Source: Eledone cirrhosa
Lineage: Eukaryota
Direction of reading: 5' to 3'
Assembly: GCA_964016885.1 (NCBI GenBank)
Contig: OZ024740.1
Location: 330,460,001 to 330,524,000, forward strand
DNA: 64,000 bases
The notes under the pieces were generated by a model that was not told the DNA's origin, made no database searches, and saw nothing but the letters and a program-made list of their open reading frames with translations. Below, piece after piece: positions 23,991 to 54,921 of this stretch (the first letter of the stretch is position 1; every line of letters starts with the position of its first letter). Position numbers and translations under genes: made by a program.

Positions 23991-24995
23991 ATGACAGGAC
24001 CAAATCTTTCATTACTGATGATTTCACAAAAGATGATCTATTGTAGGAGTTGTGCATATACAATAGATTATGTTTTTCAACAATCTGTTTTGTTTAAAAT
24101 ATATTTGCTTTGGCAGCATAGTTTGACAATAAATAAGGAAAATGAGGAAGAATTAACTAACCGGAATATCATTTGTCCAAACAGGTTGTAAACATTTCCG
24201 AAAAATTTGCTATATACATGGCGTTGAAATATATAAATTGACTTTTTTCACGTCCTATTTTAAGATGTCCTATTCAACATTTACATTTTAGAAATGCCAA
24301 CAAAATATATAAAAAATCTGCCAACTTCAATTCGAGGGAAACATCAAGATTGTGTGCTCACATATGTAAGATTTCGTGGTTTGTTATATTTAAACGAAAA
24401 ACAATTCGACGTCGCCGGTCATTTTATACGTGCCATGGTATTTCACGTAAAATGCTGATCTCTATCTATCTATCTATCTATCTATATATATATATATATA
24501 TATATATATATATTTCTCTCTCTCTCTCCCTCTATATATATATATATATATATATATGTGTGTGTGTGTGTGTGTGTGTGTGTGTTTGTGTGTTTTTTGT
24601 GTGCGTGTGTGTGTGTATGTATGTATACATATATATATATATTATATATATATATACATATATATATATATATTATATATATATGTGTATATATATATAT
24701 ATATATATATATATATATATATATATATATATATATAAGTATGTGTGTATACGTACATACATATATGTATACAGACGTACAGTAGCATGCATATATATAC
24801 ATATATATATATATATATATATATATATATATATATATATATATATATATATATATATATACATACATATACATACAGGTACACATACATATATGCACGT
24901 ATCAGTTTAGCGGACGCTTATTATAACGCCGCTTTGTTCGTTTGTTACGGTGTTAAGGCAACCACGTCACCTTTTTGTTCAACACTGACACAGGA

Positions 24996-25038
24996 ACGAT
25001 GTACTAGTTTCAAGCTTGTTAGCTATCATCAGCACCGT
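24996..25038 (-). ncRNA. Type I hammerhead ribozyme (family C)
   Basis: Minus strand reads acggtg CTGATGA tagct aaca agctt GAAAC TA GTA catcgt. Stem I is fully paired and stem III is the palindrome ACTAGT. Confidence 0.85.
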
Positions 25039-25467
25039 ATACCCATCTACCAGATAATTGAACGTTCGAAAGTATATACTTTCCTTATGAAAATTAACGG
25101 CTGAGCAGCCTAATTTGCATATCGAGTGAGCTAAGTCGGTCAGGCATACCGAAAACGATAAGTTGAAATAAAATGAAAACGAAATTTCATTTCTCACTCT
25201 TAGTACGGCACTTAATTAAATGTAAGTATGTGCGTATACGTACATACATATATGTATACAGACGTACAGTACACACATACTTACATTTAAGTAAGTGCCG
25301 TACTAAGAGTGAGAAATGAAATTTCGTTTTCGTTTTATTTCAACTTATCGTTTTCGGTATGCCTGACCGACTTAGCTCACTCGATATGCAAATTAGGCTG
25401 CTCAGCCGTTAATTTTCATAAGGAAAGTATATACTTTCGAACGTTCAACTATCTGGCAGATGGGTAT

Positions 25468-50745: not shown

Positions 50746-53300
50746 TATATATATATATATATTCTTTATATATATATATATATATATATATATATATATA
50801 TATATTCTGTATATATATATATATACATATATACATACATGTATACATATATATATATATATATATATATATATATATACATGTATATATATATATATAT
50901 ATATATATATATATATATATATATATATATATATATATATATATATATATATATATATATATATATATATATATATATATATATATATATATATATATAT
51001 ACAGAGAGAGATATAAATATTTCGTTTATATGTGATTTGAGAAGAAAGAGATGTTAAACAAATACATAGTAGACGTATTGAATAATCATTTTGATGATAT
51101 CACTGTTGGCAAATATCATGTGTTTATAATATGGTTTTCATAAACAATGTAGAGACATGAAGGCCCCACCGCAGCGTGTTAGTGCAGATATAGACTTTCA
51201 CAGCAACTAATAGTACGCTGTTATGTTCACCCTGTGAAACAACTGGATATCTAAAGAAATGATAAACAAGCTATCACCATGTGTATAAATACATACATGC
51301 AAACAGACACATTCAGAGACCAACGTAGACGCATATATAAATAGAGAGAGAGTATGAAATCAAGGTACAGAAACAGATAGAAGAGATGAATGATTAAATA
51401 GATAGATTTACATATAGATAGACAGCTAGCGAGAAATAAATAAATATATATATATATATATATATATATATATATATATATATATATAAATGAAAAGTAT
51501 ATATATATATATATATATATATATATATATATATATATATATATATATATATATATATATATATATATATATATATATATATATATATATATTTATATAT
51601 TATATATATATATATATATAAATAATATATATATATATATATATAGATACATAGATAGATAGATATACAGATACACGCATATATTCATACATACACACAT
51701 TAATAGATAGATAGATTGATGAATATAATACATTTTCGACGGGTAATATTATATAATAATCATGTGGAAGAAAGGAGGCGTTATTAAGTAGTATATCATA
51801 TATATATATATATATATGTGTGTGTATGCGTTATGTGTGTGGGTGTGCGTGTGTGTGCGCCTGTGCGTGCCCGTATGTATGTCTGTGTGTGTATCCCGCG
51901 TTCAATTGGGGGTAACCACAGTAAGTAAGATACTCAATACATAGCAGAGTATAAATGTTTAATATAAAAGTGTCTTGTACTTGACCAGATCTGTTTTCTT
52001 TCGAAGAAAATCATTGGGAATCACTGGCCCTGTAGAAGACATATATATATATATAAATATATATATATTTACAGACACACACACACACACACACACACAC
52101 ACACACACACGCACACACAACACACACACACACACACACACACACACACACACACACACACACACACACACACACACATATATATATATATATATATATA
52201 TATATATATATATATATATATATATATTTATATATGTATGCATGTATATGTATATATATATATATATATATATATTGTGTGTGTGTGTACTTGTGTCTCT
52301 GAGTGTGTTTATTTGTGTATGTTCGCTTCAAATTTATTCAATAAAATATTGCAACTCAAAAGAAGAACAGTATCTACATCAAATGGATGATAATAGAACA
52401 CTATCGACTGTAAATAAATGAGCCCAGCCGAGCAAATTTTGAAATAAGGAAAACTAGTCGATATTCAATAACCTCCACAACAACGTTTGATGATTTAATC
52501 CCCGACAGAATTATTCTGCCTATGCCCCCAAGGATATAAACACATTTTATTGAGCTAGTATCCTTAAATGTTGATATTAGCCTTCCCCACAAATATATAT
52601 TATTATATTTCACTTTTATCTATCCCCTTCTAAATTCTTAGTGCCGTAGATGGAAGTGTCCCCTAAAATAACATTTTTGGGAGCTCCCGTTTTTTTTTTT
52701 TATTTCTTTTAGTAAACATTTACCGGTGCGTTCCGATCTGTCCAGGTCGACCAAGTTGGCCCTGAAGCCCAACGAACGGTTTGTCCTTGGTGCTGTGCTG
52801 TGCTGTCGGAGTTGAGTTGCTCAATACCTTGAACATATTTACCAAATGATTACTAATACCAGTAATATATATATATATATATTTATAATTATCTCCAAAT
52901 TATTTGTTGAGCAAAATTTGCCAAATTACTACTGTGACTGATAGTAGTAGCTAGGCTCTGTCTTAATAGCACCCCCACTCCAAGCTGGTTAACCTCAGTG
53001 TCACGTGATTGATTCTTTTGAATTTGCCACTTGACCAAGAAGGCAGTGAATTTTTCAATGGCTTGGAATCTAGCCCCGCTCGCTTTTTTCCATCCACTGA
53101 ATTATTTTTATATAAGTTCCCAGTGTCCCCGCATTGCCTGGAAACTTAGCTGAGAATAGACTCCCTGATGACGTAAGCCTTCTCTATAGTTATTACGTAA
53201 CTATATTTATGTCCTTACAGAAACTAATTAGTTGGAGTGAAATTTTAGTAAGTAAGTCAATTTTCATAACTTTCTTATTTACGTCTTTCATATATATATA

Positions 53301-54921
53301 TAAAAACAAATAACGAAACGAAATTAAATTTCGTTTCGTTTGTAACTCACTTTTGTATGACTGACGCTTAAACAATTAAGTTAAAAATGTACATCCACAT
53401 ATGTATACTGAAATACTAGTATGCATATGAATACACACACGTGTACATATGTAGATGTACCGAGTTTTCACTGGTCACTTTACTGTGAGTGTCCAGCTAT
53501 TCTGTATGTAAACACACAGACAAACCGGTTCTTAGAGTCATACTGGTTTTTGAGGAAACACCTTTCATCTATTCTCCAGAAAGCCAGACAAGGAATATTG
53601 GACTAGTTTCGATGTTGTTACATCTCATCAGCAATATTTACCTATCTTCCGGCTTCTCTAGAGAATCGTGAAAGCACATATCGTTATATGCTTTTTCTAT
53701 GAAAATTAGTAGTGGGCAGACCAATTTGCATAGAGCGTGAGTACGTACCGGTTCAACGGAGACGATAAAAACAAATAACGAAACGAAATTAAATTTCGTT
53801 TCGTTTGTAACTCACTTTTGTATGACTGACGCTTAAACAATTAAGTTAAAAATGTACATCCACATATGTATACTGAAATACTAGTATGCATATGAATACA
53901 CACACGTGTACATATGTAGATGTACCGAGTTTTCACTGGTCACTTTACTGTGAGTGTCCAGCTATTCTGTATGTAAACACACAGACAAACCGGTTCTTAG
54001 AGTCATACTGGTTTTTGAGGAAACACCTTTCCTCTATTCTCCAGAAAGCCAGACAAGGAATATTGGACTAGTTTCGATGTTGTTACATCTCATCAGCAAT
54101 ATTTACTGGTCTGCCCACTACTAATTTTCATAGAAAAAGCATATAACGATATGTGCTTTCACGATTCTCTAGAGAAGCCGGAAGATAGGTAAATATTGCT
54201 GATGAGATGTAACAACATCGAAACTAGTCCAATATTCCTTGTCTGGCTTTCTGGGGAATAGAGGAAAGGTGTTTCCTCAAAAACCAGTATGACTCTAAGA
54301 ACCGGTTTGTCTGTGTGTTTACATACAGAATAGCTGGACACTCACAGTAAAGTGACCAGTGAAAACTCGGTACATCTACATATGTACACGTGTGTGTATT
54401 CATATGCATACTAGTATTTCAGTATACATATGTGGATGTACATTTTTAACTTAATTGTTTAAGCGTCAGTCATACAAAAGTGAGTTACAAACGAAACGAA
54501 ATTTAATTTCGTTTCGTTATTTGTTTTTATCGTCTCCGTTGAACCGGTACGTACTCACGCTCTATGCAAATTGGTCTGCCCACTACTAATTTTCATAGAA
54601 AAAGCATATAACGATATGTGCTTTCACGATTCTCTAGAGAAGCCGGAAGATAGGTAAATATTGCTGATGAGATGTAACAACATCGAAACTAGTCCAATAT
54701 TCCTTGTCTGGCTTTCTGGAGAATAGAGGAAAGGTGTTTCCTCAAAAACCAGTATGACTCTAAGAACCGGTTTGTCTGTGTGTTTACATACAGAATAGCT
54801 GGACACTCACAGTAAAGTGACCAGTGAAAACTCGGTACATCTACATATGTACACGTGTGTGTATTCATATGCATACTAGTATTTCAGTATACATATGTGG
54901 ATGTACATTTTTAACTTAATT
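53301..54921. mobile_element. Retrozyme-like family B, locus 2: ~1.7 units (-) at 53301-54105 plus ~1.75 units (+) at 54106-54921
   Basis: Period 465 (duplicate ORFs 53421/53886 and 54159/54624). HHRs at 53594-53638 (-), 54059-54103 (-), 54192-54236 (+) and 54657-54701 (+). (TA)n on both sides. Confidence 0.9.
54192..54236 (+). ncRNA. Type I hammerhead ribozyme (family B), second plus copy at 54657-54701
   Basis: aatattg CTGATGA gatgt aaca acatc GAAAC TA GTC caatatt: 7-bp stem I, 5-bp stem II, ACTAGT stem III, GUC triplet. Confidence 0.92.

Follow-up and report, generated by a model that had tools for sequence, protein, structure and literature searches.

Hammerhead ribozyme repeats of Eledone cirrhosa share a two-armed insertion signature with one short and one long end with Penelope-like elements

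We analyzed a 64,000-nucleotide stretch of the Eledone cirrhosa genome (contig OZ024740.1, positions 330,460,001 to 330,524,000; hereafter, the window) together with related copies elsewhere in the genome. The window harbors three families of non-coding tandem repeats with hammerhead ribozymes, designated A, B and C, and a coding Penelope-like element (PLE), designated PLE-P. As an earlier note on this sequence had described, family A, locus 2 of family B, family C and the coding PLE each consist of a minus-strand arm on the left and a plus-strand arm on the right, with the 3' ends of all four structures running into (TA)n, and the six end strings quoted in that note were true ends (Table 1). 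The comparison of copies demonstrated that this head-to-head architecture uses two fixed end sites per family, that each insertion typically combines one end of each kind, that both arms share a haplotype, that (TA)n was present before the insertion, and that coding PLEs carry the same signature.

Table 1. Structures identified in the window. Phase, nt from the ribozyme cut site; pLTR stands for pseudo-long terminal repeat, ORF for open reading frame, RT for reverse transcriptase and LINE for long interspersed nuclear element.
Structure	Position	Strand	Remarks
Family C, left arm	24736..25271	-	Short-type 3' end (phase 228) into (TA)n; hammerhead core at 25032; internal deletion at 24945/24946 (phases 57-90)
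Family C, right arm	25270..25827	+	Long-type 3' end (phase 293) into (TA)n
PLE-P, left arm	28981..29236	-	pLTR and 57-nt tail; long-type end, +221 after ribozyme cut site
PLE-P, right arm	29233..30703	+	5'-truncated ORF remnant and pLTR; short-type end (+164)
PLE-P, ORF remnant	29234-30145		RT thumb, CxxxxCxxC linker, start of GIY-YIG
Family A, left arm	32631..33648	-	3.3 units of 310 bp; long-type end (phase 165)
Family A, right arm	33648..36438	+	9.0 units; short-type end (phase 127-139)
Family B locus 2, left arm	53300..54106	-	1.7 units of 465 bp; long-type end (phase 301)
Family B locus 2, right arm	54107..54921	+	1.75 units; short-type end (phase 227)
Family B locus 1	46127..47032		Minus arm 46127-46429; plus arm 46426-47032 (short end)
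Non-coding two-arm element	47122..47553		Short end left, long end right; end and tail 77% like the PLE-P pLTR end
Young two-arm PLE-P copy	49146..50598		Short end left, long end right; nested in older PLE-P copy 48666-50747
RTE-like LINE, 3' fragment	36459..36865	-	Inside (TA)n; control, outside the system

The tandem units were 310 bp long in A, 465 bp in B and about 450-490 bp in C, the last containing an internal TA tract. All of them are low in GC and hold no relevant ORF, and each carries a single type I hammerhead, placed on the strand with the outward-facing 3' end. They resemble the animal non-LTR retrozymes, which are described as low-GC tandem units of 300-480 bp with one type I hammerhead each, no ORF and coexisting PLEs (PMC7229834; bioRxiv 10.64898/2026.07.22.740005). 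A strict pattern scan detected 12 hammerhead cores in A, 4 in B locus 2 and 1 in C, and the Rfam scan at the gathering score gave no match. Helix III was palindromic in all three families, and the stems folded with z values of -5.3 (A), -2.4 (B) and -0.1 (C). Families B and C were 62% alike across the whole unit, while A was unrelated to them beyond the ribozyme. The tails of B and C share a similar hairpin. In one A subfamily (L151, L157, L173 and L180), all units carry a one-base insertion 2 bases past the ribozyme cut site. A ligation scar at the ribozyme cut was considered and rejected, as this 1-nt insertion is one subfamily allele found at 4 of 46 loci. A MITE (miniature inverted-repeat transposable element) or another DNA transposon with terminal inverted repeats did not fit either, as the ends are offset by a tail, and the junction and arm lengths vary at each locus.

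The coding element of the window is a 5'-truncated PLE, of which a relative with a 4304-bp unit was found elsewhere. [quoted passage not shown] The linker CIDKKCITC before the endonuclease follows the CX2-5CxxC form common to the Neptune and Nematis clades (PMC8557442). With its pLTR, partial tandems, inverted copy and tail at one end, PLE-P fits, as far as its sequence tells, an endonuclease-bearing (EN+) PLE of the Neptune type, with a linker shared with Nematis. Its neighbors in the Atlas were HTH_animal/RVT_1/GIY-YIG proteins (score 0.93-0.95), and the scans of the PLE proteins against Pfam, NCBIfam and PDB gave no matches. The PLE-P pLTR carries a variant hammerhead core outside the strict scan pattern, with stems I and II that fold; in PLE-Q, a further coding family, no canonical hammerhead was found by the pattern used. 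A first look at the genome gave 33,606 candidates for the coding PLE. Copies of 98-100% identity exist for both PLE-P and PLE-Q; they are as young as those of the three repeat families. The three PLE families other than PLE-P (L058, L144, L116 and L132) show 22-31% identity to it. In the PLE-P ORF, a long Asn/His-rich low-complexity insert lies before the RT at residues about 250-480 (L106 and L221), resembling the N-rich inserts of rotifer PLEs (PMC3846280).

The 3' ends of the arms fell at two fixed sites in each family. With distances given in nt past the ribozyme cut, the arms of A end at 127-139 or 165-170, those of B at 227-232 or 299-301, those of C (on the collapsed unit) at 225-234 or 289-293 and those of PLE-P at 164 or 221. 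The two sites of PLE-Q were about 45 nt apart. Across the families, the short and long sites lie 125-300 nt beyond the cut site and are separated by 26-75 nt, and this interval corresponds to the tail of PLEs. Tandem copies run on past both sites, indicating that these are internal start points rather than RNA ends or ribozyme cut sites. Exact motifs combining the long end with TA occurred 1015 times for A and 1952 times for B, and short-end motifs 714 and 525 times, respectively, on the forward strand, to which the latter counts were confined as the reverse counts contain duplicates; the reversed controls gave 0 in all cases. Families A, B and C thus carry the insertion signature of PLEs, namely two internal ends, a tail and head-to-head arms. 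According to the earlier note, each 3' end merges into (TA)n at an AT microhomology. Microhomology does not select the sites, since each unit contains 72-95 AT/TA dinucleotides and two sites only are used. At several start sites (the short site of A, the long sites of B and C, and both sites of PLE-P), AT is followed by CG, a possible recognition motif.

An alternating-AT tract followed the arm ends of the A, B locus 2, C and PLE insertions in 8 of 8 cases, whereas a random point was followed by such a tract at 1009 of 18270 positions of the window and at 3352 of 36000 in other retrieved loci. Paralogs without the element were found in the retrieved DNA for 2 of the 54 loci tested, and in both of these the site holds (TA)n. 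As a rule, TA also adjoins the 5' side of copies with one arm. These results agreed with the former claim that (TA)n precedes the insertion. With regard to a possible making or lengthening of (TA)n by the element, the flanks summed to a median of 55 nt (33 loci) against a median tract of 15 nt, a comparison that is length-biased. The nested young PLE-P copy lies outside (TA)n between the two copies of a 13-bp target-site duplication (49134-49146 and 50598-50610), whose length gives the stagger of the cut. Locus 1 of family B is an exception, as its minus arm stops at phase 97 without TA against an older B copy (46017-46126). Some insertions (among L040, L049, L061, L064, L066 and L067) are flanked by simple-repeat tracts of 1-2 kb, and elements nested in one another's TA tails form clusters of PLE-type repeats (L152, L157, L164, L180, L095, L098, L055 and L140).

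The (TA)n association is therefore real, but it is weak as evidence for PLEs by itself, since the LINE fragment in the window, which we take to be RTE-like, shares this feature: in most of 24 copies of this LINE, TA/TAGA-type repeats follow the 3' end. What is diagnostic is the tail rule, not TA alone. If such an RTE-like LINE moved the repeats, the likeness to PLEs would be a convergence on the same microsatellite target, and the lack of a PLE homologous to A, B or C among the four families found would be understandable. Nevertheless, a head-to-head arm within 1.5 kb was found for 0 of the 24 RTE-like copies, which were chosen as full-query matches, the longer ones not being followed to the 5' end, and a tail bounded by a pair of fixed internal ends has been called unique to PLEs (PMC11167929). 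We therefore regard mobilization by the LINE as very improbable.

The combination of the two end types was examined by pairing the listed end motifs by coordinate on contig 1, to avoid score-based picking. For family A, the 48 long and 69 short ends in C1:1-130.7 Mb gave 34 outward pairs, all of which were mixed, with neither long-long nor short-short pairs (p=6e-11 against 0.5); independent site choice at each end would give at most half mixed pairs. Inspection of 20 of the 49 unpaired ends identified 11 mixed insertions with a variant or tiny second arm, 4 one-armed copies and 5 unresolved cases. When both ends were in view, 58 of 59 A loci were mixed and the remaining one was interrupted (duplicate rows dropped). 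For family B, the 100 long and 59 short ends on contig 1 formed 29 pairs, 27 of them mixed; the long-long pair consisted of two insertions and the short-short pair was real, so 27 of 28 true pairs were mixed. The 18 unpaired long B ends inspected comprised 14 mixed insertions, several with a second arm of only 8-22 nt, one with a non-canonical second end, one one-armed copy and 2 unresolved cases. Among score-selected loci, 13 of 20 in B were two-armed and mixed and 7 of 20 were one-armed, and the 20 C loci were divided into 13 mixed, 2 atypical and 5 one-armed ones. Among C loci with two arms, 14 of 16 were mixed. The coding elements behaved in the same manner: all 21 PLE-P loci with both ends at canonical sites were mixed and none was matched (4 further loci had one end broken or out of view), and PLE-Q was mixed at 3 of 3 loci. 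The majority of the copies in this census were inverted and TA-flanked, contrary to the outcome that the earlier note had named as refuting its proposal. Its view of a two-armed insertion shared with PLEs was thus upheld, but its equal treatment of the ends was not, as each insertion pairs one short end with one long end; it is this pairing that ties the retrozymes to PLEs.

Both arms carried the same haplotype at 61 of 62 A loci (about 0.11 by chance) and 13 of 13 B loci (about 0.21 by chance). Two apparent discordances in A were indexing artefacts of the one-base subfamily insertion, and the arms of three A loci differed only by a single-unit change. Locus-private variants fixed across every unit of both arms were flagged at 12 A loci. 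In family A of the window, one variant is present in all units of both arms and was fixed in both arms at none of the other loci (0 other of 62). The shared haplotype could be accounted for by self-priming, in which the cDNA folds back so that the first arm templates the second (the model of PMC3846280), and a few junctions that are near-symmetric or located at the 16-bp stem of the unit, as well as the variants shared near the junction of L172, are in line with it. Under this model, the second arm could not exceed the first, yet in 42 A rows the longer arm was the long-type one in 24 and the short-type one in 18 (length rho 0.27, not significant), and the same was seen in non-tandem PLE copies. 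Moreover, long-type arms of 10-20 nt were found beside short-type arms of 100-400 nt, and the junction phase difference was uniform (Rayleigh p 0.98), as were the 5' phases of the A arms and their sum. The arm lengths largely refuted fold-back, which we consider improbable. A rod symmetry of junction phases, seen in the first 15 A loci, was gone in 59 rows (Rayleigh p 0.23) and was rejected. The two arms of independent length, along with the commonness of tiny second arms (8-22 nt), supported the former suggestion that both target ends prime cDNA synthesis.

In the twin priming of L1, the second target end primes on the same RNA, which yields an inversion with a microhomology joint; the position of the second site varies, and the two cDNAs copy neighboring parts of the RNA. 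In the present case, by contrast, the second site is fixed one tail-length away, and the same sequence is copied into both cDNAs. Had classical twin priming occurred on a single linear multimer, the 5' ends of the long arms should cluster at the short site, which was not the case. As either arm can be the longer and the phases are uniform, both fold-back and classical linear twin priming were rejected. Alternatively, a PLE might act in trans on two RNAs, one sibling monomer per protomer, for instance the two of a dimeric hammerhead from one transcript, or on a linear uncleaved multimer, the short/long asymmetry then arising from the protein-DNA geometry. The palindromic helix III of A, B and C is a form described as dimer-dependent (PMC4209133), homogeneous source arrays would let siblings share a haplotype, L135 shows mixed haplotypes, and unprocessed RNA was the main substrate in vitro (PMC11167929). 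Two RNAs would, however, need a one-unit bottleneck to account for the locus-private variants in every unit of both arms at 12 loci, and a linear multimer is opposed by the unclustered long-arm 5' ends. We judge such a reaction unlikely.

The overlap at the inner junction was 2.8 nt on average in 49 rows versus 0.75 nt expected, by a measure that allows one mismatch and may overstate microhomology, a caution that counts against the scheme presented below. Small inserts were present in 15 of 64 rows. Such junctions, with overlap or small inserts, are as in microhomology-mediated joining. Independent insertions reuse inner junction phases at unit stems (L050/L058, L131/L158 and L051/L059/L067), with the arm roles swapped in L050/L058. 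In short-read contigs from one sample, TA loose ends were observed at both B end sites, and 9 of the 15 joint rows listed, out of 54 in total, lead from the minus to the plus arm (one inside a hairpin). The junction of B in the window was bridged by none of the 24 listed of 196 short-read pieces, and the sole opposite-strand joint among these pieces was the natural continuation of the unit. This last result would agree with fold-back artefacts of the assembly, and DNA-level palindromes or TA-targeting MITEs might also be imagined. All of these are hardly credible in view of the short-read joints and loose ends, the junction phases and arm lengths varying per locus with fixed and unequal outer ends, and the long-end motif counts given above.

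Other structures were seen in the window. A local duplication, 88-92% alike, links 27686-28935 with 31474-32604 and 30772-31176 with 37479-37920; its copies have the same (TA)n and different insertions, PLE-P in one and family A with the RTE-like piece in the other. Positions 32180-32604 belong to an older repeat family with inverted pieces. More small inverted-arm elements, most of them bounded by (TA)n, lie at 36889-37187, 39858-40054, 42927-43155, 48169-48355, 38101-38258 and 56580-57155. The unequal arms of 36889-37187 resemble the short/long pattern, and a hammerhead-like stem is present at the end of 39858-40054 and 48169-48355.

A, B and C are young non-coding hammerhead repeats inserted as two arms from two fixed sites, and we estimate a probability of roughly 0.7 that this reflects a Penelope-like RT-endonuclease, which would act in trans and prime both ends of one staggered cut on one, probably circular, RNA. 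In this scheme, the hammerhead would cut multimeric transcripts into monomers that circularize, and a PLE protein, likely a dimer, would bind near the tail and nick both target strands about 13 bp apart. The two 3' overhangs would pair through a few A/T bases, one with the short site and the other with the long site, and each cDNA would be extended around the circle with strand displacement, over a length independent of the other. Microhomology-mediated repair would join the two cDNA ends, and failure of the second cDNA would leave a one-armed or tiny-armed copy. We infer mobilization in trans from the shared signature, on which it rests given that the pLTRs of the four PLE families met in 1.1 Mb of retrieved DNA showed no homology to the three repeat families.

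This negative result weighs against the scheme, as do several exceptions: L235 in family B carries two short ends, a single C locus has its two ends at the internal TA tract and another is ambiguous, and 7 PLE-P loci show a truncated or non-canonical second end. The mixed haplotypes of L135 are not explained by a pure monomer circle, nor are the variants shared by single units of both arms at L172, L161 and L067. In vitro, moreover, the start site and the DNA that was cut shared no homology, the start sites were the same for both strands, and ribozyme cleavage was dispensable (PMC11167929).

Many of the parts are known. Inverted copies, a one-sided tail and TA bias are described for PLEs (PMC8557442; PMC3846280). 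In EN+ PLEs of the Neptune type, the tail is optional and 30-40 bp long, and self-priming was proposed (PMC8557442; PMC3846280), whereas the tail here is 26-75 nt, the pairing is near-strict, and both hold for repeats without ORF or pLTR homology. The Poseidon element PAc, predicted to form a dimer, cut and extended both strands of an AT-rich target in vitro, using two internal RT start sites that bound the tail (PMC11167929); only its own RNA was tested, and the main text reports no link between either start site and a particular end of the target. Circular PLE templates and dimeric ribozymes (PMC4209133), as well as the mobilization of retrozymes by PLEs via circular RNA (PMC7229834; bioRxiv 10.64898/2026.07.22.740005), were already proposed, and autonomous/non-autonomous PLE pairs targeting microsatellites are known in algae (PMC9977147). 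The published case for retrozymes is built on co-occurrence, shared ribozymes and pLTR homology (PMC7229834; bioRxiv 10.64898/2026.07.22.740005); the word "inverted" is absent from the main text of the former, and the main text of the latter contains no junction analysis. Li et al. (bioRxiv 10.64898/2026.07.22.740005) favor local tandem growth from the pLTR, whereas here a single insertion seems to account for each array. Neither inverted, tail-bearing retrozyme insertions nor the one-of-each pairing nor the shared template was found described in the literature searched, which did not extend to supplements, subscription papers, Repbase reports and Arkhipova 2006, where a prior mention is possible.

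The feature is real and genome-wide, and is built from known parts. What is new is a quantitative rule that connects the retrozymes with PLE enzymes at the level of mechanism and suggests asymmetric double-ended priming on one RNA. PLEs are the closest retroelement relatives of telomerase, and the mechanism of their tandem and inverted insertion has been called undefined (PMC8557442). The mover of animal retrozymes has so far been argued from co-occurrence and homology only. Thousands of young, near-identical insertions turn these matters into a rule: a short and a long end, one template and independent lengths. The rule rejects fold-back, names exact sites on the RNA and makes both questions testable by the existing in vitro PLE assay, and an enzyme able to write cDNA at the two ends of a cut, with a small non-coding RNA supplied in trans, would be of interest for genome writing. 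The chances seem about even for the broader proposal that PLE integration is an asymmetric double-ended rolling-circle reaction, in which the dimer hands the staggered-cut ends to two preset sites on a ribozyme-made circle and any circular RNA with the site pair is written in. If so, the head-to-head structure, the tail and the retrozyme arrays of animals would be one phenomenon, and the tail rule would serve as a fingerprint assigning orphan repeats to the PLE machinery without homology.

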